Assembly: GCA_963787835.1 (NCBI GenBank)
Contig: CAWBEI010000002.1
Span: 1,504,001-1,568,000 of the forward strand
Direction: 5' to 3'
Origin: Ignavibacteriota bacterium
GTDB lineage: Bacteria; Bacteroidota; Ignavibacteria; Palsa-1295
Length of the DNA: 64,000 nucleotides
This document shows positions 5,708 to 60,374 of this stretch, in pieces (the stretch's first letter is position 1; every line of letters begins with the position of its first letter). Under the pieces are notes generated by a model, which saw only the letters and a program-made list of their open reading frames with translations, did no database searches and was not told the DNA's origin. The position numbers and the translations under genes are program-made.

Positions 5708-8347
5708 ATGAAAACGAAAATAGCATTTTCTATCTCCATTATAGGTGCCATACTATTCTTGACGACTGAGATTCAAGCCCAGCCCTGGCTACCAACCCCA
5801 GCCCCTATCCCACATGATACCTCACATTACCATGTGACCATGGCTTCAGGTCAACAAGTCTGGATGCGTCGTCCGCCTGACACGATGATGAATCCAGCTA
5901 ATCTTATTGTTCGTTTTAGACCTGGTGTGCTTGATTCCAGCAAACTAAGTCAAACATATTGGAGCTACTTTTACGGACACGAGACAAAGCATAAAGGAGG
6001 GATTCAACCATTGAGCGGTCCATACGATGGGACAGATCAGCCCCGCGGGTTTTTCCCAGGTTTACGTCAGTTGCTTTTTGCAGATCACTTCTGGTTTGAT
6101 AGCACCAATAATATAGTGAAGGATACATTGCTCCGCAATTTCCTGATTGCGAATGGCGGTCACTTCCTTCGGCGCTTAACGGCTGCAAGTCCAATCGATA
6201 CCCTAACTATTACTCGGGAAGGTGATACAGTTCCCTCCGATCTCCCATGTTGGATGGTTCTAAATTTCGATAGCACCGTTAATCCATTGCTCCTTGCATA
6301 TCTCCTCACTTGGGAATTTCCAAAAGATATTGCCGTTGCGTATCCTGGGTATCATGGCGGACAACTCGATGGCCAACCTTCTGACTTATATTATACTCTT
6401 GGCTATCAACGGGGTATTCGGATGATTGAGGCGGATACAGCCTGGAATCATGAGGTTGGTGATACATCCATAAAGGTGGAAATCGCTGATGAGGGCTTGG
6501 ACTATCATCATCCTGATTTTGGCGATACCGTTATTGGGGAGGGACACAAATGGATGGCGTCTTGGAACTTCTATTGGGGAAATAATTATACGGATACGAC
6601 GCAGGGTGGTACTGTTCCTGATCATGGTACTGCCATGTCTGGTATTATTGGAGCTCTTTCGAATAACAGGATTGGATCACATTCGCCGTTCGATACGTCT
6701 GTTGCTGGAATAGCCGGCGGACACGGAACACTACTTCCCGATCCTACGTCACAGGGGCGAGGAGTCACCTTAGCGGCTTATGAAGCAAGCTTGAATGGGG
6801 GCATCGATTGGACGGCAAGCATTTTCGAGTCATCTTCAAGAAGTCCTAACACGCCATTCGGTCTGGGAGTAAATGTAATAAATTGCTCCGAAGGATGGTT
6901 TGCTTCCGATACTGGTAACGATCAAGCTCCAGCGCCTTATATCCCAGCAGCAGTCAATTATGCCTATCTGAATGGAGTAACCTTTGTTGCCGCTGTATTT
7001 GAGTTGGATTCTGGGGTTTCAAATCTGAGAAACTATCCTTCTGATCTCGATGATCAATGGGTTATTTCGGTGGGAGGTAGTACTTCTATTCCTTACAAAG
7101 AAAAAATTCAGCAATCTGATTATGGATATACTCTTGATCTTTTGGGTCCAGCTGGGGCTTCAGATTATGGAGGTAATCCATTGACACTCAATTATACGAC
7201 AAGGATGTTGACTGCATCTTCTCCCTTTACTTATGGTGCTTATGGCGGGACATCTTCTGCTACCGCCAATGTAAGTGGAAGCGCCGCACTTTTGCTTTCG
7301 CATTTTCACAGACAAGACTCTACTCTCAAAAACGTAGAGCCAGAAGATATTCAAAACATCCTGAAAGCATCGGCATGGAGAATGGATACAGAGCGTCTTG
7401 CGCACTCTGACCTTGCCGCATCTTGGGTACCTCACAATGGTTATGGCCATTTGGATATAGGCCATGCCTTAGAGATGCTTGACACAAACATCAACGATTC
7501 ACCTGATGCTGGATATAAACTGTATCATTCCGCAGCAATAAGCTTCCCATTGCTTGATTCCGGGAATTGGAGCGCTTTTCAAACAGGGTTCCAATTCAGC
7601 CCTCCTTGGCAGGATCAAAATATGGGGGATACTTTTGCTGTACCACTCGTATATTATCTTCCAGAGAATATTAGTTTCGGATACAAAGTTCGATCACGTG
7701 CATTGACATTCACATTTACACTTCCCGATAGTCTTGAAAATTCAGACACTTGCCCTCTTTTTGTCTGGGGTCGTAGTGGTGGCGCAGGAAACCCATCCGG
7801 TTGGAGCTTCGAGGATTACCCAAATTTTGAGACAGGTTGGACAAAGGTTACTAATGGAACTGGAAGTGACCCCGATTCACTCATGGATGGAATTTTTGCT
7901 CCTTCAAGTAAGGTAATTCACCTTGAAACTGCTCAATATGATGTTTATGGTTGGAGCGATTCAACAGGAAGTTATTCTCATTATTTTGGACATGCACCAC
8001 CCGACCCGGAAGTAGCTGTAAATTTCAGCTATTTCGGTCGAGCAAAACGACCAGCGAGCATTGTTCAGAATGGTCTAATTTTAGGAAGCGATTCGCTTAT
8101 AGTTTCGGTTAATTCCGCGGGAACGATGGTTAACGCAAAATTCTTTACAACGGAAGATCTTCCTAATGTAAGGGTGGAATTCCGAGACGTTCTCGGAAGA
8201 ATCGTTTATAGCGATCAATTAAGCCATACAATTTATGGGTGGAACGAAATAAATCTTCCATCAAACTTTATGGCTGCAGGCGCATATTTCTGTGTTATTA
8301 CTGCCGAAAATTATTTTCAAGCGAAAAACTTTCTGCTTCTAAAGTGA
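5708..8347 (+). CDS. Secreted S8 (subtilisin-family) serine peptidase with T9SS C-terminal sorting domain
   Basis: Signal peptide; catalytic motifs IADEGLD (D), DHGTAMSGIIGA (H), GGTSSATANVSG (S); CTD-like DVLGRIV...GAYFCVI..KNFLLLK. Confidence 0.88.
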   Translation: MKTKIAFSISIIGAILFLTTEIQAQPWLPTPAPIPHDTSHYHVTMASGQQVWMRRPPDTMMNPANLIVRFRPGVLDSSKLSQTYWSYFYGHETKHKGGIQPLSGPYDGTDQPRGFFPGLRQLLFADHFWFDSTNNIVKDTLLRNFLIANGGHFLRRLTAASPIDTLTITREGDTVPSDLPCWMVLNFDSTVNPLLLAYLLTWEFPKDIAVAYPGYHGGQLDGQPSDLYYTLGYQRGIRMIEADTAWNHEVGDTSIKVEIADEGLDYHHPDFGDTVIGEGHKWMASWNFYWGNNYTDTTQGGTVPDHGTAMSGIIGALSNNRIGSHSPFDTSVAGIAGGHGTLLPDPTSQGRGVTLAAYEASLNGGIDWTASIFESSSRSPNTPFGLGVNVINCSEGWFASDTGNDQAPAPYIPAAVNYAYLNGVTFVAAVFELDSGVSNLRNYPSDLDDQWVISVGGSTSIPYKEKIQQSDYGYTLDLLGPAGASDYGGNPLTLNYTTRMLTASSPFTYGAYGGTSSATANVSGSAALLLSHFHRQDSTLKNVEPEDIQNILKASAWRMDTERLAHSDLAASWVPHNGYGHLDIGHALEMLDTNINDSPDAGYKLYHSAAISFPLLDSGNWSAFQTGFQFSPPWQDQNMGDTFAVPLVYYLPENISFGYKVRSRALTFTFTLPDSLENSDTCPLFVWGRSGGAGNPSGWSFEDYPNFETGWTKVTNGTGSDPDSLMDGIFAPSSKVIHLETAQYDVYGWSDSTGSYSHYFGHAPPDPEVAVNFSYFGRAKRPASIVQNGLILGSDSLIVSVNSAGTMVNAKFFTTEDLPNVRVEFRDVLGRIVYSDQLSHTIYGWNEINLPSNFMAAGAYFCVITAENYFQAKNFLLLK

Positions 8348-9633
8348 AAAAACGAGCAATTTTGCTTGTAGCAATTAATATCCTGATCCACTGCGATCTT
8401 CATGCGCAGTGGATTCAGGATACTCTTTTGTATCATAATGATGGTTCCTGGGCCATGGTCACTTTGCACGACACACTCTATGTGTCTTCCCATGCCACAA
8501 TTTTACGTTCAACGAATGAAGGAAATTCTTGGCAAGAATCGGGAAAGGGTCTGATTTCTGGAGAGACATATCTGCCTTTTTTAGGAGCCGGAAATTTTAT
8601 GTTGGCACAAGTTTCAGGAATAGGTCTCCCCGAAGACACCAACTTTGGGAAGTTGTTTCGTTCAACGGATGCCGGTGCTTCATGGGTAAGAGTTAACATT
8701 CCAGCTTTTTCGATTGGGAATGGATTATTAACCTCAATTGACACTGAATTTTTCGTTTCTGGAGTGAAAGGCTTACTTAGTTCCTCAGACAGTGGTGTTT
8801 CTTGGATCGTTGCGACATCCGACAGCAACAGCGGATTGCTGTCCGGTTCTCACGTCAATTGCGTATTGCGGTTAGGCACCCGGATTTTGGTGGGAAGTGA
8901 TACTGGAATTTTTGTTACTACAGATAGCGGTCAATCTTGGAACATATTACAATCAACGGATACTCTGAGAGAAGTTCATACATTAATCTCACATGGACGA
9001 TATATTTTTGCAGCCGCAAACGACTCCATTTTTCGCTCTTCAGATTCCGGTCAAACGTGGCTTGATATTTCCGATCATCCCCTTGTGTCATGGCCTACTT
9101 ATTCATTTGGCATTGCCGATTCGAATTTATTATTTTGCAACGGTTATCTATCAGTCCTTTATCGATCAAGCGATAATGGGAATTCTTGGCTGCCTTTCGG
9201 ACAAGGGTTGGGTAATCAAGCCGTATCGGGTGCCTTCTATTCTTCACAAAATTTCCTTTACTTTAACTCAAATGGGGCATCTCTTTATCGTCGTCCTCTT
9301 TCCGATTTCGGCATCAGTTCCGTCGCGCAAACTCCATCCGAAACGTCATCCACAATTCAAATCTACCCCAACCCCTTCTCACAATCCACCCAAATCTCCT
9401 TCATCTCGCAATCCGCCGGATACGCCGAAGTCTCCATCGTGAACATGCTTGGCGTGGAGGTTGCGCATTTGTTTTCGGGTGAGTTGGGTGCGGGTGAGCA
9501 TTCGTTTGAGTGGGACGCAGGCAAGAATGCCTGCGCTACACAGGGGGCGTATGAATGCCTCGTTCGGATGAATGGGCAGGTGGATGATCGGTCATCCACC
9601 GTGGAAACGGTGCCGGTGGTGTTGATGCGGTAA
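8344..9633 (+). CDS. BNR/Asp-box repeat beta-propeller (YCF48-like) protein with T9SS CTD
   Basis: GTG overlaps the upstream TGA; signal peptide; repeated SxDxGxSW boxes; C-terminal YPNPFSQST...YECLV. Confidence 0.88.
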   Translation: MKKRAILLVAINILIHCDLHAQWIQDTLLYHNDGSWAMVTLHDTLYVSSHATILRSTNEGNSWQESGKGLISGETYLPFLGAGNFMLAQVSGIGLPEDTNFGKLFRSTDAGASWVRVNIPAFSIGNGLLTSIDTEFFVSGVKGLLSSSDSGVSWIVATSDSNSGLLSGSHVNCVLRLGTRILVGSDTGIFVTTDSGQSWNILQSTDTLREVHTLISHGRYIFAAANDSIFRSSDSGQTWLDISDHPLVSWPTYSFGIADSNLLFCNGYLSVLYRSSDNGNSWLPFGQGLGNQAVSGAFYSSQNFLYFNSNGASLYRRPLSDFGISSVAQTPSETSSTIQIYPNPFSQSTQISFISQSAGYAEVSIVNMLGVEVAHLFSGELGAGEHSFEWDAGKNACATQGAYECLVRMNGQVDDRSSTVETVPVVLMR

Positions 9634-9646
9634 CCTCGCTTTCCCG

Positions 9647-9720
9647 TGTACACCGGGTTTCAACCCGGTACCGCCGTTAATCGCTCATACGTTTCGCAGC
9701 GGGTTAAAACCCGCTGTACA
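9647..9720. repeat. Inverted REP-like doublet
   Basis: TGTA-CACCGGGTTTCAACCCGGT ... CAGCGGGTTAAAACCCGCTG-TACA: two hairpins in inverted orientation, each with a GTA foot. Confidence 0.8.
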
Positions 9721-9770
9721 CGCGCCAGGGCCAACAATCAGATAATTTTTAACATAATTTCAGATTTCGC

Positions 9771-9801
9771 TTGCTTTTCGACTCAGGATGTTGTATGTTT
9801 G
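9771..9801 (+). promoter_or_regulatory. Promoter of non-coding element copy 1
   Basis: TTGCTT-17nt-TATGTT(TG); also fits the Bacteroidota TAnnTTTG element; 13 nt upstream of ATGGGCACCT. Confidence 0.55.
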
Positions 9802-9812
9802 GTAGTGCAATG

Positions 9813-10032
9813 ATGGGCACCTTGTATCAATTTTCAATTAAGAATTGAGAATTAAGAATTAAGAATGATGGACCACGATTTACAGGATTTTCGGGATTAG
9901 GCAAGGATGGTGAGTTCATTGAAAACTGCGCTTGACATTAATTTTCACATTGAAATTAATGAATAATTTACTGGAATGGAAAAATTGTTCATTAAATGAC
10001 AATTCAATTGCGTTTGGCAGGCACCCATTTCT
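9813..10032 (+). ncRNA. Candidate structured non-coding element, copy 1 (divergent core)
   Basis: First ~45 nt and terminal GCACCCATTTCTTGAGGAAA nearly identical to copy 2; GTTCATTGAAAACTG shared with copy 3; same overall length. Confidence 0.5.
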
Positions 10033-10064
10033 TGAGGAAATTAAGAAATGATAAATGAGGTCGA

Positions 10065-10966
10065 TCAGGAGAGATGCTTGATTCGATCCCAGATGGCATC
10101 AAGTTCATCCAAAGTAAAATCGGAGAATGGGCGACCGGATGCTTCGACTTCGGCCTCGACTTTTCGGAAACGGTTGGAGAATTTTTGGGCTGCGAATCGG
10201 AGCGCGCCTTCGGCATCGATTCCTTCGTGGCGGGATAAGTTTACGAGGGAAAATAGGAGATCGCCGAATTCTTCTTCTTTCGGAGAGAGGCCATCGGGGG
10301 AAACCACCCCCACGGATCGTCGGCGATCCTTGCCCCCTCCTATTTCATAGGAGGGGAGATCTGAGAATTCAGTTCGGCTTCGAACTCTGCGATCTCTTCG
10401 CGTATCTTTTTCCATACACCTTCGGAGTCTGGCCAGTCGAAGCCAACTTTGGATGCTTTTTCCTGGAGCCGTGCTGATCTCTGGAGCGCCGGAAGGGAAG
10501 TTGGGACGCCATCTAAAATGCTATTTCTGCCCTTTTCACGGCGTTTTAGCTGTTCCCAGTTGCGGCTGACATGTTCTGAGCCCTCTACCTTGACATCCGA
10601 AAACACGTGCGGATGGCGGTAAATGAGCTTCTCGCACTCGGTGCGGATGACGTCATCGAGGGTAAAATAGCCCTCTTCTGCGGCCAGATCGGAATGGAAT
10701 AGGATATGCAGGAGCATATCACCGAGTTCTTTTTTTAGTTCAGTGTAGTCTCCTGTATCTATGCCGTGGTCGATGGCCTCTACGGTTTCGTAGGCTTCCT
10801 CGATAAGCATAGGGCGAAGAGAAGCGTGGGTTTGTTCGCGGTCCCATGGACATTCTTTTCGCAACCGGTGGACGATCTGGATGAATTCGGCGAGCGACCC
10901 AAGCGCCGGCAATAATGGCTCATCCGGTGATGGATCATTTGTCATAGTAGTCAGAGATTCAGTCAT
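10065..10966 (-). CDS. mazG: Nucleoside triphosphate pyrophosphohydrolase MazG, with a palindromic insertion and one frameshift
   Basis: LRKECPWDREQT...EEAYE...EELGD-like KELGDMLL...KLIYRHPHVF...KVGFDW in ORF 10340-10966; C-terminal EEEFGDLLFSLVN...KFSNRF in ORF 10065-10415. One extra base in the G4 run at 10353-10356 joins them. Confidence 0.92.
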
Positions 10967-16520: not shown

Positions 16521-17336
16521 CTACTTTTTCGGTGGTAAATAGTTTTTTCCTGTAACGACACTTTGCCCGGTGCGGCCTTCGAGTTCTAAGCGTGCTTTTT
16601 TGGCAATGCCTCCTCCTTTTTTGCCGGCTTCTTTGTTTGGTTCCAGTCCTCGTGCCTGCATGGATTCGGCGATCTGGCGTGTGCTGAGTTCGGCAAGGGC
16701 GGTGAATATAAGTTCCGCCTCGCTCATGTGGTCACGGAGATTTTCCGATTTCAATCCTTTCACCACCTTATGTTCGCCCGGCGTAATTCCGGACCACTCC
16801 TTATGGATGATCGCCGTGAGCAGTCCGTATTCCTTGTCCCTCACCTCGTGGTCTTTCCAATAATCGGTCAGTTTATTGCGCGTTTCCTGACCCATCATGC
16901 GTTGCTGGATCCATTTTTCTGAGCGTCCGAGCTTTTGCCAGTTTTCACGCGCGCGATCGACGGAACGTGCCGGATCGGCGATCTCCTGCAATCGCTCGTA
17001 GCCAACTTTTGCCAGCCATAGCTTTATCGGCTCCGCCTTCGGACTTGGCACCGATTGAATGAGCCGCAGGAGGGTTTCGGGGTTGGCGGCGTCGGTTTCG
17101 CGCATTTTGCCATCCGGCGCGCGCATTTTCAACTGGTGACATTTTGTCACCACTTCACTTCCTTCCTTCGCGAGCCGTTCTTTCAGTTTGTTCCAGTACT
17201 TTCGCGCAGTCTGGAAATCAGCCTGCTGGGTGAGGATCTGAATAATATCGACAACGGAAAAATACCAGGTATCGGTTGCCTCGTCATACACGCGGCGGAC
17301 GCGATGCTCTTCGAATGGAATAATGGATTCGTTCAT
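16521..17336 (-). CDS. BRO-N domain protein (prophage antirepressor-like)
   Basis: VRRVYDE...WYFSVVDII...RKYWNKLKERL...CHQLKMRAPDGKMRETD...LLRLIQSVPSPKAEPIKLWLAKVG...ENLRDHM. Confidence 0.85.
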   Translation of the reverse strand: MNESIIPFEEHRVRRVYDEATDTWYFSVVDIIQILTQQADFQTARKYWNKLKERLAKEGSEVVTKCHQLKMRAPDGKMRETDAANPETLLRLIQSVPSPKAEPIKLWLAKVGYERLQEIADPARSVDRARENWQKLGRSEKWIQQRMMGQETRNKLTDYWKDHEVRDKEYGLLTAIIHKEWSGITPGEHKVVKGLKSENLRDHMSEAELIFTALAELSTRQIAESMQARGLEPNKEAGKKGGGIAKKARLELEGRTGQSVVTGKNYLPPKK

Positions 17337-17448
17337 GGTGCCTATCAAATTAGTATCTAATATACGATATTGGGTAGGCACCATTCACGTATTCACGAAA
17401 ATAAAGGATTCGCTCTAGTAAAAGTTAGTAGCAGACGGAGAATACCCG

Positions 17449-43949: not shown

Positions 43950-46900
43950 ATGAAAAAATCGATAAGTGTTAAGAGAATAGGTTTTGCCGTTTGCTTCACG
44001 TTACTCTTATGCTCAGGAGGAGTTCGCGCTCAGAGCTACGTCCCCGTTCCATATAATTTTGGTGTCGTCTTCGAAGCGACCGATGATTCAGCAGGAGTGG
44101 GTTTTAAGACAACCGACCTCTCAATGGACTGCCTTGCCGCAAATGGGTATGGTCAATGGACTGCTTCTTACAAAACACAAAATGCATTTGATTCCGGTAG
44201 CCCGGGCCTGTTCTTGCTGGCCAATGCGCTTCGCTCACCAGATTCAAATATAGTTACCGAACGTGTCTCGTCAACTGGAATTGTCTCGTTCAGACCGTTC
44301 GTCTATCCGGACAGTTCTGGGTATCCCGTTGATAGCACCACAACACACCGAAGTGTTGTGAAGTGTGTTGCCAACCTCAAAGGACGGGTTCGTTATGTGT
44401 GGCCACTTCAAAACCATACGGGGTTTTATATTGAGGGATTCAATGAATGTCCAGCGAACGACTCCGTAGGACTATCCGGGATCAACCTCGAATTTGCAAG
44501 TTATCCATATAATACGACATATGGTGCTTACCCGAGTCCACTCCTAGCAAAAGATGTAATCAAGCCAGCTACAGCCATCCCATTTAATACCATTCCAATG
44601 GCGTCTGGACATACGATTGTTACTAGCGCGCATGAGGCAGACCCCCGGGACTGGTTCGATATTGCTATCGACACAACATATCTATATGTTGTGTGGGAAG
44701 AGTATGATTCTACAGGACACTATAATATCTGGGAACTTAACGAGAACCTCTCCACCGGGCAATTTGGCCCCCCCATTGAGGTCGCGGCAGGGGCCAGGAG
44801 ACCCACGATCTCTGTTGATCTAAGGAAACATTTAACACCAGTTACACCTTGGCTCCCATGTTTTGATGTAGCCTATATTACGGGGCTTCTATCCACCGAT
44901 CATCTGACGTGGTACAACTATGATGGATTTAGAATCCCTGCTGCTGACACTATGGCGATGACAAAGAGTTCGGAAGACACAGCAGGAGGAACATGGTCAT
45001 ATAAGAAAGTCATGCACGCAAGAATGCTTGATGCAACATGGGAAAATATTTCGTCGTCCGACACGACTCCAAGAGCAATTTATGCAATCGTTACAGACTC
45101 TGTTAATAGTACCCATCTCGTTATGCATAAGATCAAGGGAGGCGCACAGGACGCAACGGCATATTATTGCGATGGTTCGAAAATTACTTATCACTCGTAT
45201 GGAGTTGATAACGGTAAGTTCCCAGTTATTGATAAGCCCATCCGAGCGTTTGTAAATCCTTATGATGGTGAAAATAACGATAACTTCGACGAGTACCATT
45301 GCATGTACCAACTGGCGAGAACATACACTGGTGGCTCACACAGGCCACTTATGATTATTCATGGGGCACTTGTGAATAATTCGCTGGGCCCCAAAAGGTG
45401 TCTCAACTTTACAAATGGGTATCTGACGCCAGGAACTGTATTTTTCCGCCCTGACACTTTTCACTCGTTCTATGCTGACCCTGGCTTGAATACGGATGGC
45501 GGCGACACGGATAATTATGTTGGTGCAGTAAACCAAATGGGAATTCACACCCACTGGCGCAACGGAACACAACACTACTATCTCAGAGACACTCGCATAT
45601 TTGATGAAAACATCGAGGAGAATACACTCGTCACAGAGGATGCTTTTGTTATCGATGGCACAACACATGGTGGGACTTATACGCCTACTATTCAACCTGG
45701 GAAGACAATGACATTGTGGTCTGACCGTATAAACGGCTATGGTGTAGATAACTTCCCAGGAAAATGTACCCTGTGGATCACATACTTTGAAGGTAACTTT
45801 GGGGCTAATGATGCCGCGACCAAACTAATCGTTGGGACTGGAACGGGCAATCCTGCCAAAATGGTAGTTGTGTGGAATGCGGACGTTCAATCGGATACAA
45901 GTTCTCAACAAGTAGTTATAAAACCGCTCTCATCACTAGATGCATACGGTAATTCGGACTTTGAAACGACCCTTAAAATGGAAGGCATTGGGGCAACGAT
46001 GACTGGGGGAACGTATAATTACCCTTCTGCTATTTCAAGTCCTGCATATCTTAACCTACATGGGCATAGCCTTTTCTTTCCAGCAAGTGTTTTAGCAGAT
46101 AGTAGTCTTATCACCACTGAATACGACCAGGACGCAACGTTGCTCGATAGTAGCTTTGATTTTTCAGGCCTATATGTGCCGTTTCCCAGCACCATTACGA
46201 ATTCAATAATTTTGAATAAAGACACAAGCGTCCCGGGGAGCAACATTGCCACGATTGAGATGTGGGAGACAGATTTATTACATGATACAATCTCGATTAT
46301 CAATTGTCTGATTCAGCAGGGTAGACTTGCAGTACCCGAACCTTTCTTCCAGCCTCTTCCGATTATAATATCCGGTGGGAAATTCGATAATACTCCAATT
46401 TGGGGATATTTCGTTCCTAATTCATTAACGATAGAAAACGTCTTGTTCAAGCTTACAAGCTATCCTCACAATACATTGGGTGCGGGTGCAGAAATTTTTC
46501 TCCAAAACGAAAATGGTTCATATCTCCCATACGAAACCTATAACACGACTACCATTTCCGGGTGTGATTTCGCAGAACTCCCAAATGGCTCTGACGGAAT
46601 TTTTGCTTACGATTACGCAACCGATTCCGACATTGTGCAACATCTCCAAATTAGCGGAAATTCCTTTAATGATGCCGCTTATTCTGGCCTTCTTCCCCAC
46701 GCCGCCATTGAGCTAAAACATTCCGAAGGGCTGATTGCCGATAATACTATTGAAGGTTATTTCCAATATGGCATTATCGTGTCCGGGAATAATTCCTATA
46801 CTACACTTCAAACAAAGTCCACTATTTGTTCGAATTCCATAGCGACTGGGACTATTGCTGGGATTGCAACAGATAACACTGAGGGCTACGCAGAACTCAA

Positions 46901-48389
46901 CGAAGTTCAAAAAATCACTGGAGCAGGGCATATCAGTGGCGTCAATGACAAAGGCCGGATTATTTACTCAAATTATTCTAATAATGAGGGATCGGGAATT
47001 GTGGCATCTGATTCATCGGGGGAAGGTGCTGCCGATCTAACTGGCATCCATTCAACCACTCCTGATTCCATCGATAATGCCGCATTCGATACGATTCAAC
47101 AAAACGGAGGTAATGCACAAATTAGCCTCGTGAAAGGAGCCAACATTCGGCTTGGAAATGACCATGAATTATGGTCATGGACCAATTGGTGTCAAAATAA
47201 CATTATCACGTCTTATTCTGACAATGGTTGTGATGGTGGTGTCAGCTATGTTCCATTTATCGTCGAGGATAGCGGCAAAACCAACAGTAAGCTTGGCAAC
47301 ATATCACACAATTTTTTTGACGATATTAATATTGGTTTTGTGTTACCTGAAAACCAGCCGACAGGAACTGGATGCAACGATACACTCAATCGTGGAACGC
47401 CTTCGAGTTGGCTATCTTCTTATTCGACTCCCATCGCTGCAACGGGGTTTTGCAATAGCGCCGATTCTAATGATACTACATGGCAATCTCGGCCTGATGG
47501 TGCAGTTGATTGCGGAGCACCATTGCCTTTATACAAGACCAAAAAGAAATCTCCAAAAACTCTATCATTTCTAAATTTAGACACCTCCACATGCCAATAT
47601 AAATTTTCGTTAGGGGATGCTGATGATCAAGCTGGCGAATACCTACAAGCTGTTAACGAATTAGAGTGGTATGTTGAAACCTGCTACGATTCCGGCGCAG
47701 CACAAGCATTTGGGGATTTACCCGGTGCTGTTGGCGCTATGGGAGGTGACACATCGAGATTTACCACCTTCCGAGAGTGGCTAAAGACAGTTCTTTGGCT
47801 TGGACCAATGTACCCAAATTATTATTGCAATTGTGCTCAAGATATGTATGAAAGCTACGAAGGAATTGATGCAGGCCGTAATTTGAATGCAGCTCTTGCA
47901 GTCATTAGATATTTGGACTCATCCGGCCGATGCAATTGGGATGCGGACGAAAATGAATATCTTGCCATGCGTCATCAGATATGGCTCGATACTGTAGGCG
48001 GATTACACAAAGGCGATACGACGGATTTTCCCGAAGACACAACGCTTCCTACTATTGATGATCTTGGCCTTCAAATCCTTCGCGGACCTCTTGCCGTAGT
48101 TCAGAATGTGTCTCCATCGCCGTCGGGAATTAGTGGTCTCACCGCAAGCGAAAATCCATTCGTCAAAGAGACGACGATCTCCTTTACCACAGGGGAATAT
48201 GCCTACATCAGTTTCCAGGTGTTCGATGTGCTCGGAAGAGTGCTGCAAGGGGACTATAAAGGCTCAGTCCAGTCTCCTGGCTCTTACTCCTTTACTGTCG
48301 ATGGCACAAACTGGCCTCCGGGGCCTTATTATGCTCGCATTACAACGCCTCTTGGTGAAACGAGGACAATAAAATTGGTGAAGGAATGA
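43950..48389 (+). CDS. Giant (1479 aa) secreted protein with probable beta-helix region and T9SS CTD
   Basis: AAGGAG RBS, signal peptide, ISGN/IADN/ICSN..GI repeats, C-terminal ENPF...FDVLGR...GPYYARI...TIKLVKE. Confidence 0.85.
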   Translation: MKKSISVKRIGFAVCFTLLLCSGGVRAQSYVPVPYNFGVVFEATDDSAGVGFKTTDLSMDCLAANGYGQWTASYKTQNAFDSGSPGLFLLANALRSPDSNIVTERVSSTGIVSFRPFVYPDSSGYPVDSTTTHRSVVKCVANLKGRVRYVWPLQNHTGFYIEGFNECPANDSVGLSGINLEFASYPYNTTYGAYPSPLLAKDVIKPATAIPFNTIPMASGHTIVTSAHEADPRDWFDIAIDTTYLYVVWEEYDSTGHYNIWELNENLSTGQFGPPIEVAAGARRPTISVDLRKHLTPVTPWLPCFDVAYITGLLSTDHLTWYNYDGFRIPAADTMAMTKSSEDTAGGTWSYKKVMHARMLDATWENISSSDTTPRAIYAIVTDSVNSTHLVMHKIKGGAQDATAYYCDGSKITYHSYGVDNGKFPVIDKPIRAFVNPYDGENNDNFDEYHCMYQLARTYTGGSHRPLMIIHGALVNNSLGPKRCLNFTNGYLTPGTVFFRPDTFHSFYADPGLNTDGGDTDNYVGAVNQMGIHTHWRNGTQHYYLRDTRIFDENIEENTLVTEDAFVIDGTTHGGTYTPTIQPGKTMTLWSDRINGYGVDNFPGKCTLWITYFEGNFGANDAATKLIVGTGTGNPAKMVVVWNADVQSDTSSQQVVIKPLSSLDAYGNSDFETTLKMEGIGATMTGGTYNYPSAISSPAYLNLHGHSLFFPASVLADSSLITTEYDQDATLLDSSFDFSGLYVPFPSTITNSIILNKDTSVPGSNIATIEMWETDLLHDTISIINCLIQQGRLAVPEPFFQPLPIIISGGKFDNTPIWGYFVPNSLTIENVLFKLTSYPHNTLGAGAEIFLQNENGSYLPYETYNTTTISGCDFAELPNGSDGIFAYDYATDSDIVQHLQISGNSFNDAAYSGLLPHAAIELKHSEGLIADNTIEGYFQYGIIVSGNNSYTTLQTKSTICSNSIATGTIAGIATDNTEGYAELNEVQKITGAGHISGVNDKGRIIYSNYSNNEGSGIVASDSSGEGAADLTGIHSTTPDSIDNAAFDTIQQNGGNAQISLVKGANIRLGNDHELWSWTNWCQNNIITSYSDNGCDGGVSYVPFIVEDSGKTNSKLGNISHNFFDDINIGFVLPENQPTGTGCNDTLNRGTPSSWLSSYSTPIAATGFCNSADSNDTTWQSRPDGAVDCGAPLPLYKTKKKSPKTLSFLNLDTSTCQYKFSLGDADDQAGEYLQAVNELEWYVETCYDSGAAQAFGDLPGAVGAMGGDTSRFTTFREWLKTVLWLGPMYPNYYCNCAQDMYESYEGIDAGRNLNAALAVIRYLDSSGRCNWDADENEYLAMRHQIWLDTVGGLHKGDTTDFPEDTTLPTIDDLGLQILRGPLAVVQNVSPSPSGISGLTASENPFVKETTISFTTGEYAYISFQVFDVLGRVLQGDYKGSVQSPGSYSFTVDGTNWPPGPYYARITTPLGETRTIKLVKE

Positions 48390-48446
48390 GAAAAATTCAA
48401 ATTTCATGATGGGTGAGAAAATTGTCGTATATTAGTTCGTACTTTG

Positions 48447-48665
48447 ATGGGCACCTATATCAATTTTCAAGTAAGCATTGAGAATTAAGAGTAGGTGTGC
48501 ATCGCTCATTGGCAATTTGGGCGGCATAGCTTTCGTTATGAACGAGTTCTCTGTGAAGGGACTTTTATGAATACTCGTTGAAACAAATGGCGAAATTGGC
48601 TTAAAAACGAAGGGTGAAGATGAAATGTCGGGAACTCACAAAAAAGAAAAATAGCACCTATTTCT
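48447..48665 (+). ncRNA. Candidate structured non-coding element, copy 2
   Basis: TATATT at 48428-48433; blocks ATGGGCACCTAT, GCTTTCGTTATGAACGAG, ATGGCGAAA, AAACGAAGG, TCGGGAACTCACAA, GCACCTATTTCT shared in order with copy 3. Confidence 0.65.
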
Positions 48666-48743
48666 TGAGGAAACACGATTTTGTCTAATAATCTTGTTCG
48701 AGCCTTCGGCTGGACCGCGCTCATTCGCAAAGGTTTCTCTATT

Positions 48744-49808
48744 TCAGTAACGGAGGGCAGGATTGGGGATCTGGCCATATTTAAATATGGCGAACGTTCC
48801 CGGAATGATGGTTGGCCTTGGGTTGGGTTTATCCTTCGTTTGAGCCGGGGCGGGGCCGAGATCGGCAGTGGTGAGATAGATGTCATGCGTGGTTGGGTCG
48901 AACCCGACATTGCGCGCGCCCTTCTTGGTTTCGAGCTTTTGTGCGAGCTTGTATTTGCCCTCGGTGGTCTCTCTCAGAATGGTAACATTTCCCTCACCAT
49001 TGGCGCTGAACGCAAGCTTGGTGAAGGGATCGAAATCCGCAGCATCGACGCCTTTGCCGATGGGGAAAGTCTGGGTGATCTTGCCATTGGTCGCATTCAT
49101 CACGATCATTTTCTGATTCGCGCATCCGGCGAAAAGGCGGTTCGAGCCACGATCCATCGTGAGTGCCGTCGGTCCGACGCCCGGCGCGAGCTTCCACACC
49201 GCTTCAACCGTGTTGGTGCTCGAGTTGATCTTTGCGATCTCGGACGTGCTTTCAATATTGACATAGACGTAGCCACGTTCATCGGAGATGGCGGATTCGG
49301 GGTTCCCATCAAGCGCAATAAGCGCGAGCGAGGCGCCGGTGCTGGCATCGAGTACTGAAATATTATTGCTACCGGCGTTCATCACAAACACATGATGGGA
49401 AGCATAGTCATAGATAATGGCATCCGGCTTTTCGCCGACTGCAATGCGCTGAATGGTGTCACGTTTCTGCAAACCGAACTCCAGCACCGTATTCGATTTT
49501 CCGCAGGAGATAAACCCATGCTTTTCGCGATCTGCAATGGCAATACCATGAGCACCTTCCGTATTTAAGATCGGTGCCATCACGGAATCGTGGTCGAGGT
49601 TATAGGTTTCGACTTGCGTGGCGTGCGCGATATATAGCGTTCGGTTTTCGGCATCGACTGTAAGAAAATCCCACCCGCCCTGACCGCCGATCGTTACTTG
49701 TTTTAAAAGCTGATAGCGTATCGAATTCTGTGCGGATACATGACCGCAACAGCACGTGATAAAAATTCCGAGCGATAGGAAAGAGAGCCTTGACGTGAGC
49801 TTATTCAT
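48744..49808 (-). CDS. YncE/YVTN-family beta-propeller protein
   Basis: GGQGGWDFLTVD, GAHGIA, GEKPDAIIYD, KKGARN. Confidence 0.9.
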   Translation of the reverse strand: MNKLTSRLSFLSLGIFITCCCGHVSAQNSIRYQLLKQVTIGGQGGWDFLTVDAENRTLYIAHATQVETYNLDHDSVMAPILNTEGAHGIAIADREKHGFISCGKSNTVLEFGLQKRDTIQRIAVGEKPDAIIYDYASHHVFVMNAGSNNISVLDASTGASLALIALDGNPESAISDERGYVYVNIESTSEIAKINSSTNTVEAVWKLAPGVGPTALTMDRGSNRLFAGCANQKMIVMNATNGKITQTFPIGKGVDAADFDPFTKLAFSANGEGNVTILRETTEGKYKLAQKLETKKGARNVGFDPTTHDIYLTTADLGPAPAQTKDKPNPRPTIIPGTFAIFKYGQIPNPALRY

Positions 49809-57408: not shown

Positions 57409-58489
57409 ATGGAATCGGAAGCCTTTACCCAAGCTGATCCTCGCGTTGGTGTTACTCGAAGGATGGCGCTTACCTCGCGCATCATTGGCGAGTTTGCGCC
57501 GCATGAGGTGCTTCTGATCTTTTTTGCTGCGTTGTTCAGCTTGATTGCCGTCGTGGCGCATGAGCGTGTTACGGAATGGCCCCAGGTGCTTGTGAACATG
57601 CTTATTGCAGTTGCGATCATTGTTACCATGAGCTTTTGGTCTGTCAGAGCAGGTACGATCGGTGTTGTAGGGCGTTGGCCTCGCCGGCTACGTTTATATT
57701 ATCTGTTTCCGGTCATTCCCATTTATTTCATGACTGCGGGGCTCATTTCACATCCGTTGCATCTGATGGATTTCGATTCCATGCTCATCGCTGCGGATCG
57801 CACCATCTTTGGCGTGAACCCCACCGTATGGCTATATGAGCATTTCCCTTCGTGGCCCTGGCTCACTGAATACCTCATGCTCTGCTACTCCGCATTCTAC
57901 TTTTTGCCACTCGGGCTGGCCATCGAGCTCTATAAACGTGCCAGAAAAAAAAGACGAGTTCGGCCATACAAACCCGTTCTTGTTCGGCGGCGCTCGAAGT
58001 GGGGATCAGCCCGAACCCGTGGAGCAGGTCGTCTTTATTATTGCGTATGGGTTTCTTCTCTCGTATCTGGGGTACATTTGTATTCCTGCGATCGGCCCGC
58101 GTTTTACGTTGCATAACTTTCTAAACCTCTCGAACGAGTTACCCGGTCTTTTTCTGACAGAGCCGCTCAGAACGCTCCTCGACCGTGGCGAAAATATTTT
58201 GCCCGGAATGTCCATGGCGACTATTCTTGCCCGTGTCACCCGCGATGCCTTCCCAAGTGGGCATACCGATGTTACCGTGCTCACGATCCTGCTTGCATTC
58301 CAATTCCGATCGCGGTTGCGATGGCCGATCACCGTTATTGGCCTATGCCTTATTTTCTCGACCGTGTATCTGCGGTATCACTATGTGGTCGATATTCTCG
58401 GCGGCCTCATCATGGCTGTGATCACACTCTACTCCTGGCAGTGGGTGCGAGAGCGCATGATAGAGATACGAGCGCGGTTCGTTCAGTGA
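57409..58489 (+). CDS. PAP2-superfamily (IPC-synthase/Aur1-like) membrane protein, frameshifted at an A8 run
   Basis: N-half in ORF 57400-58116 (D..L...D...FG..P, LTEY...Y); C-half in ORF 57836-58489 (PAIGPR, DAFPSGH, STVYLRYHYVVD). A7 instead of A8 at 57945-57952 fuses them. Confidence 0.85.
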
Positions 58490-58498
58490 GTGTCACCG

Positions 58499-58713
58499 AG
58501 AAATAGGTGCCATTTCTTTTTCTTGTGAGTTCCCGATGCTCCTTCGTTTCCGAGCTGTTTTCGCCATTCGTTCTGGAAGAACAGCAAAATCCCTTTTCTC
58601 AAAGGACTCGTTCATAACGAAAGCGATACCCGACATCAATTTTCATTGAACATCTGCACCCCGATTCATCTTTCATCTCTCATATTTCATCTTTTCCCCG
58701 GATAGGTGCCCAT
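58499..58713 (-). ncRNA. Candidate structured non-coding element, copy 3
   Basis: Same ordered conserved blocks as copy 2, on the minus strand; GNRA-capped hairpin with compensatory changes. Confidence 0.65.
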
Positions 58714-58725
58714 AGTCTCACTCTC

Positions 58726-58754
58726 AATATACGGACTTCATTCGACAATGTCAA
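58726..58754 (-). promoter_or_regulatory. Sigma70-type promoter of element copy 3
   Basis: Minus strand TTGACA (58754-58749), 17 nt spacer, TATATT (58731-58726); no sizeable ORF downstream. Confidence 0.75.
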
Positions 58755-58898
58755 GGAATTCCAAAAGATTTTAGAATTTTTTCGTACACCCCGAAACTTT
58801 CCACCCCGCTTCCGGCAAGTTATACTTGTCGGGCGATCCGGAAGCCATACGGCATTGGAAACAGAGTATCATTGTTCACTTTTTACTTAAATTCGGCT

Positions 58899-60374
58899 AT
58901 GAAAAAGATTAGCACCATTTTTTCGTTTTTTTGCGTGCTTGTGTTGCTTGCTCTACCCAGCGCCCCTCGCGCTCAAACAATCACGATCGATTCCATGTCC
59001 GGAACCACGTTTTGTGCCGGTGATCCGCTCTCGGTAACATTCACTGCCACTGGAACATGGGGACATAAGAATGCCTTCACGCTCCAACTCTCGAACGACA
59101 GCGGAATCTTCGATAACGGATTCCAGAATATCGGATCGATAGTCGATACCGCTCCGGGCACTTTTACAATATACACTACGGCTCCTGGTGGCCTGACATT
59201 TCAGCAATTCAGTATTACCCAATACATTGATAAAGATGGCAGGGATACGCTCTATTACGCCGACACAGTCATGACAAGAATTATAGGTAACGATACTACT
59301 TTCGATACGGTAGATGCTCCGCACATAGTAGTCATTCCCGACACTGTTTACGACACCACATTACCTACGCATTATCGTGTACGCATTATGGGAGCTTTAC
59401 CGTACACCCTAAGTGCGGATAATGGCACAGACATAGTGGTTAGTCCAAGCCCAGGCATAATATCCTTCTCTTATCCTCGGCCCGGACTACCTACCCCCCT
59501 AACAGACTCTCTCTATGATGCAGTAATTGGTGCTCCGATAAATTATTATCTTAATGGTGGTTCTGGCACCACATTTTATTGGAATTACGGAGATGGGGCC
59601 GATCCAGCCACATTTACAGAGGTGAATTCTCAGCAACCCAAAACAACCTATTCAACTCCGGGGCTAAAAATGGTGACTGTCCAGGCTGTCGCATCCGGTG
59701 GGTGTTCGGTCTCCGACACAGCCTATACTTATGTGTATGATTGTACCATCCCCGTAATTCCAAATGATGCCATTGTCATTTCGAGCGATACAGCCTTGGG
59801 TGATTGGGACGATTCTTCACTCTATTACGCTTATTCTGCAATCCGAAATCGTACCTTCTGGATAAACCCCGGCGTGACGGTTTGGACCAACACCGGCGTC
59901 TTCAACAATGTTGATACCATCTTCGCCGAATCTGGGGCAAATATCTTGGGTGGGGGTAGTCAAAGCATTGTCTATCTAAAGCCCGGCGCTACCGCAAGTG
60001 ACTGCCTTGTCATCAGTGACACAGGTACAAGTCTCACGGAATGTACTGTGCTGGAATGCCCAGGACTTAGCTTCGATTATTCTCAAGCGCCACCCAACGC
60101 GATCATGGCTGCATACGAAAGCGTTGCGCCAGCCGTATCTTCGGAGCCAATTGAATTATTTCCAAATCCAACGAACGGCAACGTCACGCTGCAAAACCTT
60201 CCATTGGGTGCAAATATAATGGTGATGAATGTGCTCGGCGAGACGGTGCAAACCGAGAACGCGAGAGGGAATACGAATCTTTCACTCGATCTCTCGAATT
60301 TCGCACCCGGAACGTATTATATTCGAATTGCTTCTGGAAATAGTGTAACAACGAAGAAAATGGTGAAGGAATAA
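58899..60374 (+). CDS. Secreted PKD-domain protein with T9SS CTD
   Basis: Signal peptide MKKISTIF...; PKD motif FYWNYGDG...TYSTPGLK.V...GGCS; CTD LFPNPTNG...NVLGE...PGTYYIRI...KKMVKE. Confidence 0.9.
   Translation: MKKISTIFSFFCVLVLLALPSAPRAQTITIDSMSGTTFCAGDPLSVTFTATGTWGHKNAFTLQLSNDSGIFDNGFQNIGSIVDTAPGTFTIYTTAPGGLTFQQFSITQYIDKDGRDTLYYADTVMTRIIGNDTTFDTVDAPHIVVIPDTVYDTTLPTHYRVRIMGALPYTLSADNGTDIVVSPSPGIISFSYPRPGLPTPLTDSLYDAVIGAPINYYLNGGSGTTFYWNYGDGADPATFTEVNSQQPKTTYSTPGLKMVTVQAVASGGCSVSDTAYTYVYDCTIPVIPNDAIVISSDTALGDWDDSSLYYAYSAIRNRTFWINPGVTVWTNTGVFNNVDTIFAESGANILGGGSQSIVYLKPGATASDCLVISDTGTSLTECTVLECPGLSFDYSQAPPNAIMAAYESVAPAVSSEPIELFPNPTNGNVTLQNLPLGANIMVMNVLGETVQTENARGNTNLSLDLSNFAPGTYYIRIASGNSVTTKKMVKE

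Follow-up and report, generated by a model that had tools for sequence, protein, structure and literature searches.

Mosaic intergenic repeats with a predicted SOS-regulated promoter as candidate anchors of accessory-gene exchange in a Kapabacteria-like bacterium

The stretch of 64,000 nucleotides analysed here (the window) corresponds to positions C2:1504001-1568000 of the 3.57-Mb genome (G000; 98% complete) of a Kapabacteria-like uncultured soil bacterium, whose close relatives carry dozens of the elements described below. Three copies of an intergenic element are found in the window (Table 1). T9SS cargo, always on the promoter side, adjoins all three; the adjacency itself had been noticed in a first-pass annotation of the DNA. 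The three units that it proposed are present where it placed them: ATGGGCACC begins 13, 13 and 12 nt after the -10 box in copies 1, 2 and 3, respectively, and the terminal GCACCYATTTCT, the heptamers and the blocks common to copies 2 and 3 were all recovered. At 17-nt spacing, the -35 boxes are TTGCTT in copy 1 and TTGACA in copy 3. Copy 2 forms the right edge of a ~5.1-kb insertion (43564-~48700), which is lacking in four relatives. Unrelated, REP-like GC-rich inverted repeats lie directly before element promoters, at 9637-9725 in the window and upstream of many elements elsewhere.

Table 1. Elements, their parts and their neighbours in the window, and the copies of orfX in the genome.
Feature	Coordinates	Strand	Remarks
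Element copy 2 (main body type)	48385..48673	+	Whole unit, from A/T tract to terminal motif
-10 box TATATT, copy 2	48428..48433	+	Read from the sequence
Predicted LexA operator GTAC-N8-GCAC, copy 2	48439..48454	+	Over the predicted start site; putative binding site
Two tandem TTC-N5-GAA palindromes, copy 2	48532..48557	+	Arms conserved, spacers free; 'hairpin' of the first-pass annotation
Terminal motif GCACCTATTTC-N5-GAAA, copy 2	48654..48673	+	Homology between duplicated cargo units stops there
T9SS-type cargo gene (1479 aa), promoter side of copy 2	43950..48389	+	Inserted relative to G002, G006, G009 and G014
Conserved beta-propeller gene, 3' side of copy 2	48744..49808	-	Convergent
Element copy 1 (alternative body)	9750..10040	+	Heptamer and 9-mer modules
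Perfect GTGC-N8-GCAC box, copy 1	9805-9820	+	
-10 box TATGTT, copy 1	9794-9799	+	
BNR-repeat T9SS cargo gene, promoter side of copy 1	8239..9633	+	
mazG, 3' side of copy 1	10340..10966	-	Conserved gene
Element copy 3 (main type)	58491..58775	-	
-35 box TTGACA, copy 3	58754-58749	-	
-10 box TATATT, copy 3	58731-58726	-	
Box GTGA-N8-GCAC, copy 3	58721-58706	-	
PAP2-family gene, 3' side of copy 3	57836..58489	+	Convergent
T9SS cargo gene (PF18962), promoter side of copy 3	58872..60374	+	Divergent
Bodiless -10 and box motif before Bro-N gene	17337..17364 (approximate)	-	Gene is ORF 16521-17384, - strand
orfX, four copies	G000:C2:4752-5522, 9784-10470, 1381574-1382383, 1411540-1412325		

The unit, which had been given as 215-220 nt, in fact spans ~290 bp: it starts at an A/T tract ~45 nt upstream of the -10 box and stops ~14 nt beyond the final GCACC, its 3' end being GCACCTATTTC-N5-GAAA. 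The description 'three-copy' holds within the window; genome-wide, profile searches yield 77 merged loci (a figure that takes in the lexA leader and one probable heptamer-only false match), of which 53 have the copy-2/3 body and 24 have other bodies. The three copies do belong to a real family, but copy 1 represents a different body subtype. The bodies are mosaics assembled from a few modules (heptamers of two types, a 9-mer block, cores of two types, and chains linked at GCACC); these are freely shuffled, some bodies being only about 100 nt long, and the promoter is kept in 70 of the 77 loci. The motif TATATT-N12-14-ATRGGCACC occurs 59 times in the genome, far more than chance would give, versus 0 for its reversed control, and the same exact motif is found in 34/35 genomes of the family (1-59 copies each; the reversed control totals 2). 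Copy 2 has matches in 11/31 genomes, all of the same family and with at least about 24-28 matches in five of them, and no match in 12 other families of the class. A search with the 3' motif returned 27 metagenome loci and 36 loci in three named Ignavibacteriota MAGs, palsa_1295 included (records that may overlap the comparison genomes and are not counted as independent), and viral contigs gave no exact match; for a co-occurring orphan gene, one homologue is attributed by name to a Candidatus Kapabacteria MAG. The short peptides read from the ATG are not conserved, and the earlier description of a real, promoter-bearing, non-coding repeat family without an Rfam match stands. Inverted pairs of heptamer repeats of the type found in the 5' modules are also widespread without an element (e.g. 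G000:C2:1231871-1231971 and 468231-468360).

Overlooked in the first-pass annotation were the nature of the 5' motif, which coincides with the box of the family's predicted SOS regulon, and the position of the elements, which mark core/accessory boundaries. ATGGGCACC makes up the right half of the palindrome RTGC-N8-GCAC. In the lexA promoters of the family, [AG]TGC-N8-GCAC stands right after the -10 box in 19/19 genomes (18/18 family upstream regions used, plus G006), some of which have 2-3 tandem copies of the 16-bp box, and the box is absent from the eight lexA regions from outside the family that are shown in full. RTRC-N8-GCAC is present within 250 nt upstream of recA in 22/30 genomes and upstream of dinB-like genes in 11/30 (the right half in 20/30), with control values of 0/12 for rplJ and 0/12 for trmD. 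The same promoter and motif lie directly before a dinB-like gene in a low-copy relative; in G000, the motif is found before recQ and the two dinB genes, one of which lies upstream of a dnaE2-like gene, as well as before methyltransferase, SIR2, Bro-N and DUF72 genes, at all of which it occurs without a body. Furthermore, when a symmetric matrix was built solely from lexA promoters, 19 of its 22 top-scoring sites in the genome fell in element loci. One of these is the leader of lexA, a single canonical gene (TIGR00498) in this genome, and this leader has body modules in common with the elements. In the elements and at dinB and recQ, degeneracy of the left half of the box is frequent, and consequently repression may be weak or the true motif may be asymmetric. 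Judged from these sequence patterns, RTGC-N8-GCAC is likely to be a new LexA box for the family, resembling the Fibrobacter LexA box, which has TGC-N8-GCA geometry. It differs from the LexA motifs named in the available part of one source (CTGT-N8-ACAG, TTAC-N3-GTAA, GGTT-N10-AACC, GTTC-N7-GTTC, GGA-N5-TCC and CTAA-N5-TTAG; PMC8565304). A single lexA and a palindromic box at lexA, recA and dinB are shared with the canonical regulons as presented in that part (PMC8565304); unlike in canonical regulons, however, most strong boxes here sit in repeats and not before repair genes.

Several loci associated with the box have additional features. At the lexA locus (G000:C6:57595-58474, the gene itself at 57595-58272), up to three tandem 16-bp boxes are followed by a ~150-200-nt leader made of element modules. 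A mutagenesis cassette with dinB/imuB-like and dnaE2-like genes lies behind the box at G000:C4:32805-38842, with a divergent DUF72 gene, and a second DUF72 gene (C2:25452-26387) is also found behind the box.

Within the element bodies, the palindrome TTC-N5-GAA reaches 8.3 per kb as against 0.54 genome-wide, and other spacings range from 0.1 to 1.5. The set of 108 copies used for the RNA analysis below was partly selected on this palindrome. The arms of the first palindrome are kept in 51-52 of 52 copies selected only on the 3' motif. This combination of fixed arms and free spacers suggests protein-binding sites, and this is their likely role as judged from the pattern of conservation. No clusters of TTC-N5-GAA were found before other genes. 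A linked XRE regulator was considered as the binder and was rejected, there being one likely case among 76 loci.

The first-pass annotation had proposed a stand-alone structured RNA as one of two options. The pairings that it proposed can be drawn, but they are not conserved across copies. Rfam gives 0 matches above the gathering score in the window and none on any element in 7 loci at E values up to 5, and RNAalifold returns 0 pairs for the 108 copies from this and other genomes, which were chosen by sequence motifs and therefore have limited variation at those columns. The covariation score of the proposed structure is 0.070 versus 0.072 in shuffles, a score as high being reached by 354/500 of them; 62/108 copies disrupt its central G-C pair, and the 'GNRA' hairpin is only 59% paired. 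An alternative long-range fold and folding of the short palindromes into hairpins were also tried and rejected, as both fail covariation and are no better than shuffles, and the top mutual-information pairs proved to be alignment shifts or subtype linkage. Single-copy folding gives z values of -3.5 (copy 2), -0.2 (copy 3) and -0.6 (copy 1), and over 41 copies the mean z is -0.9 in the sense and -0.6 in the antisense direction, with 9/41 copies below -2. The structured RNA reading is not supported; the conserved feature is the primary sequence. Contigs of one peat metatranscriptome (5% of words shared) pile up on the elements (28 and 42, summed over paralogues); these contigs, which carry no strand, end or level information, are not counted as expression, because they sum paralogues of related organisms and at least one of them spans the promoter.

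The elements have a fixed polarity with respect to their surroundings. On the 3' side, 59/75 neighbours have a Pfam match, and these are mostly housekeeping genes, including six for ribosomal proteins, thrS, trmD, obg, lptF and dxr. On the promoter side, a T9SS gene is the neighbour in 30/76 loci, compared with 4/75 on the 3' side. The other 44 promoter-side genes include 15 assigned to defence, toxin-antitoxin or mobile functions and 26 without a Pfam match; among them are SIR2 (2), type ISP, methyltransferase, Cas9, PIN (3), HigB, PemK, zeta toxin, RelA/SpoT, AAA_14 and Y1 transposase (2) genes. Among 60 distinct copies from other genomes, at least half of the 3' flank is covered by homologues in G000 in 51/57 cases, and the 5' flank is so covered in only 6/55. 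The earlier observation of a link to T9SS genes is borne out in a comparison of intergenic gaps (29/66 element gaps versus 82/489 control gaps, p=2e-6), but this enrichment may simply mirror the dominance of T9SS genes in the accessory genome, a T9SS-type tail ending ~257/2981 ORFs called with a simple ORF caller. The coding ends of paralogous T9SS tails are ~80% identical and may themselves be recombination anchors. Regarding orientation, 48/76 elements are co-oriented with their 3' gene and 28/76 are convergent with it, and the notion of the element as a simple promoter of the next gene was rejected on account of the latter. One element (G000:C2:1211718-1211956) is divergent from a cas9 gene, the two being 133 nt apart.

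Approximately 75 chromosomal slots at the edge of core genes carry elements, and comparisons with relatives reveal that the contents of these slots are dynamic. The site of copy 3, a synteny breakpoint, is unoccupied in G002, G006 and G009 and filled by a different element in G014; at the site of copy 1, G014 has the same promoter with other inner modules, and remnants are seen elsewhere. After trmD, the gene pair is unbroken in 5/11 other genomes of the genus, and in G000, G006 and G009 both the element and its cargo differ between genomes. Of the foreign loci, 38/61 map to slots that are also filled in G000 and 23/61 to slots that are empty there (three of the 61 rows are duplicates, and five 'filled' calls are weak, with matches starting >500 nt downstream). 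When copies at 29 shared slots were ranked by similarity, the orthologous one reached the top three in 5/23 (core), 6/25 (promoter) and 8/25 (middle) comparisons; orthologous copies are thus seldom among the most similar, which implies that elements are repeatedly replaced in place. The median rank of the orthologous copy is 10 of 70 (promoter, middle) and 17 of 54 (core), showing some vertical inheritance. In three paralogous units of T9SS genes plus element, and in one further pair, the common DNA stops at the 3' end of the element; the one left junction inspected in duplicated cargo lies at a T9SS stop codon. The empty sites (the 23/61 foreign loci, copies 2 and 3, and trmD), seen in relatives that are 70-90% identical, a distance at which exact junctions are out of reach, imply that new slots arise, and plain homologous exchange explains this poorly. 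The split trmD and rplS had suggested that inverted pairs of elements bracket islands in the manner of composite transposons, a reading rejected because the trmD-rplS split is genus-wide and no element lies at the left end of the copy-2 insertion. In six other families trmD and rplS form a pair, which is interrupted in those genomes of the genus that were examined; rpoC-rpsL is likewise interrupted in the rows covered, and both break sites now host variable DNA.

Searches for an enzyme that might move the elements gave largely negative results. G000 contains no reverse transcriptase (PF00078) and no IS91-type Y2 transposase (PF04986), the latter being found in 1/35 family genomes and 0/14 control genomes. 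A Pfam scan of 119 flanking genes revealed no recombinase (a further 32 are T9SS-type or orfX), and none of the three tyrosine recombinase genes of the genome is the nearest neighbour of an element. Of the element loci, 2/76 adjoin one of the ~nine Y1 transposase loci of the genome. The elements are not REP doublets, and REP-like hairpins are often found just upstream. Neither terminal inverted repeats nor a target-site duplication was seen in comparisons with relatives that are 70-90% identical; the flanks are unrelated, and the ends consist of an A/T tract and a direct-repeat motif. By the features compared, the elements do not fall within Rfam families, MITEs, IS91/ISCR, retro-elements or integrons, the comparison with the last covering flanking genes, site layout and hairpins. 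The traits of a NIME-like class are present: mosaic modules between short motifs, syntenic but dynamic positions and proximity to variable surface genes.

The only gene found repeatedly between 5' and 3' modules is orfX, an orphan of ~260 aa with four copies in G000, each having the box upstream and element modules downstream. Two of the copies are near-identical, one of them being frameshifted; the inverted duplication that contains the first two copies is near-identical and may be an assembly artefact. orfX is present in 17/31 genomes, all in the family and including genomes with few elements. GCACC is found upstream in 24/28 loci having upstream sequence, and profile-detectable element modules follow in only 4/30 loci. 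At 50% identity, OrfX forms about 300 clusters. The predicted structure (pLDDT 86) matches DnaB, KaiC, RadA and Rad51 folds, with a best match of Z 13.7 and an rmsd of 4.0 over 192 residues, and a Walker A motif is present in none of 42 aligned sequences; OrfX is, according to this model, a RecA/DnaB/KaiC-fold protein without Walker A, and we take orfX, by analogy, to be an ImuA/SulA-like SOS gene. Transposase and guide-using nuclease functions were considered for OrfX and rejected in view of the RecA-like fold and the absence of any Pfam, NCBIfam or PDB sequence match.

The explanation that we favour, and to which, on comparative evidence, we would give an even chance, is that these ~290-bp mosaic repeats, composed of SOS-type promoter and leader modules of the family, act as SOS-linked recombination anchors for accessory-gene exchange, probably more common after DNA damage. 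LexA would bind the box and keep the outward promoter off until its RecA-triggered cleavage. Incoming or intragenomic DNA consisting of cargo plus element would cross over within a resident element in a RecA-dependent manner, generating chimeric modules, and the other end of the cargo would join at a second repeated homology (for example the C-terminal coding end of a T9SS gene) or illegitimately. Because the 3' side is core genome, only promoter-side exchanges would survive. SOS derepression, through transcription and the loss of LexA and of the putative TTC-N5-GAA binder, may open the anchors, and new slots would require rarer illegitimate events. Anchoring of this kind would give rise to chimeric modules, fixed slots and one-sided turnover, with LexA gating the promoter and perhaps the exchange itself. 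A more ambitious version, which we regard as doubtful, sees in the elements an analogue of the integron that is dispersed and works without an integrase: ~75 docking sites, each bearing a promoter and gated by LexA, would be opened by DNA damage for the exchange of secreted-protein and anti-phage cassettes among chromosomal slots, with the TTC-N5-GAA binder or OrfX, in this reading a lineage-specific, LexA-boxed and apparently catalytically dead RecA-fold protein, as a dedicated accessory.

The second option of the first-pass annotation, a non-autonomous mobile or recombinational unit, comes close to recombination anchoring. In its mobile form, a rival reading, the element would be the fixed end of a non-autonomous, one-ended unit, moved in trans with the adjacent cargo and preferring old sites, comparable to the ori end of IS91/ISCR or to a REPIN/MITE. 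Such a unit would produce the sharp 3' boundary of the duplicated cargo and the empty orthologous sites, accounting for new slots, and would fit the 1-59 exact promoter-box motifs per family genome, the Y1 genes by two elements, the hairpins just upstream and the layout of all four orfX copies, which resemble a coding version of the element. We nevertheless consider it unlikely: the reverse transcriptase is missing, the Y2 transposase is confined to one family genome, none of the tyrosine recombinases is the nearest neighbour of an element, terminal inverted repeats, target duplications and exact viral-contig matches were not observed, and OrfX, with its RecA-like fold devoid of Walker A, is also encoded in genomes with few elements.

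Two further alternatives retain the SOS link and dispense with exchange at the element. In a purely regulatory scheme, propagated SOS promoters would restore or rewire core genes severed by insertions, or titrate LexA, the cargo link being incidental; the co-oriented majority, the bodiless promoter-box module that drives methyltransferase, SIR2, Bro-N, DUF72, recQ and dinB genes, and the possible buffering of LexA by dozens of boxes would all be in keeping with this. We find it quite improbable, given that the remaining elements face a convergent gene, that a repressed promoter would presumably be a poor rescue for ribosomal genes, and that the ~200-bp body, the module chimeras and the cargo duplicates ending at the 3' motif are left unexplained. 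The convergent elements instead argue for something other than gene promoters alone, and together with the conserved promoter and the folding of copy 2 and a minority of other copies, they could point to a family of SOS-induced non-coding RNAs working by primary-sequence motifs, e.g. by binding OrfX or another factor, a reading that the first-pass annotation had in part proposed. This appears about as improbable in view of the lack of a consensus fold or covariation, the folding z values of copies 1 and 3 and the mean values on either strand, and bodies that are freely shuffled and as short as ~100 nt; moreover, an RNA acting in trans leaves the core/accessory polarity unexplained. Recombination anchoring remains the reading that we prefer.

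Integrons combine attI/attC sites with an SOS-controlled integrase, and ISCR/IS91 elements possess an ori end. The present elements share with these systems an SOS link, accessory cargo at a fixed site, an outward promoter and one fixed end, but they are dispersed and have neither an attached integrase or Y2 transposase nor a conserved single-strand hairpin. As far as the available parts of the sources allow a comparison, they appear to work most like the NIME arrays of Neisseria (PMC1797815) and anchor-based cassette replacement (PMC5361080). In the former, dRS3 repeats flank RS modules, and a role in gene exchange, through either homologous or site-specific recombination, has been proposed for the arrays (PMC1797815, in the part available). 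In both systems, variable modules enclosed by a short conserved motif with an 8-nt spacer form intergenic mosaics, which are syntenic in position, dynamic in content and adjacent to surface-protein genes (PMC1797815, same part); the likeness is one of organisation, with no apparent sequence relation. Unlike the NIME arrays as described there, the elements are single and oriented, have a promoter and a probable LexA box at their start and part core from accessory DNA with fixed polarity, and unrelated genes, not alleles, are swapped. Putative mobile promoters (PMC3575422) and Correia elements (PMC1797815), to the extent covered by the available text, are similar in that a promoter is reused before unrelated genes and dozens of copies are dispersed; in contrast, the present elements have a regulon operator and a mosaic body, lack terminal inverted repeats and are in many cases convergent. 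In the T6SS effector arrays of Vibrio, too, unrelated genes replace one another beside a conserved anchor, on one side of it, and chains of left-over modules are present, but the anchor is a gene at three loci, compared with a non-coding repeat with an SOS box at ~75 loci here; homology-facilitated illegitimate recombination events are noted as rare (PMC5361080, in the part available).

No description of the repeat family was found in open-licence papers (supplements excluded), and the elements are apparently an undescribed variant of mosaic recombination repeats, distinguished by the SOS-boxed outward promoter and the strict core/accessory polarity. The turnover of accessory and defence genes at fixed hotspots without an integrase is largely an open question. 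In the present case each slot is marked by an oriented and recognisable sequence tag, so that a list of hotspots can be drawn up from sequence and the function of the tag is directly testable; the tag also couples variable slots to the predicted SOS regulon. The analysis further yields a candidate LexA box for Kapabacteria-like bacteria, a regulon whose strong operators are mostly located in repeats, and a multicopy orphan family of RecA-fold genes bearing the same box. In two of the relatives (G006:C9 and G002:C1), a CRISPR-like array with long direct repeats and unique spacers begins ~100 nt after the orfX stop codon.
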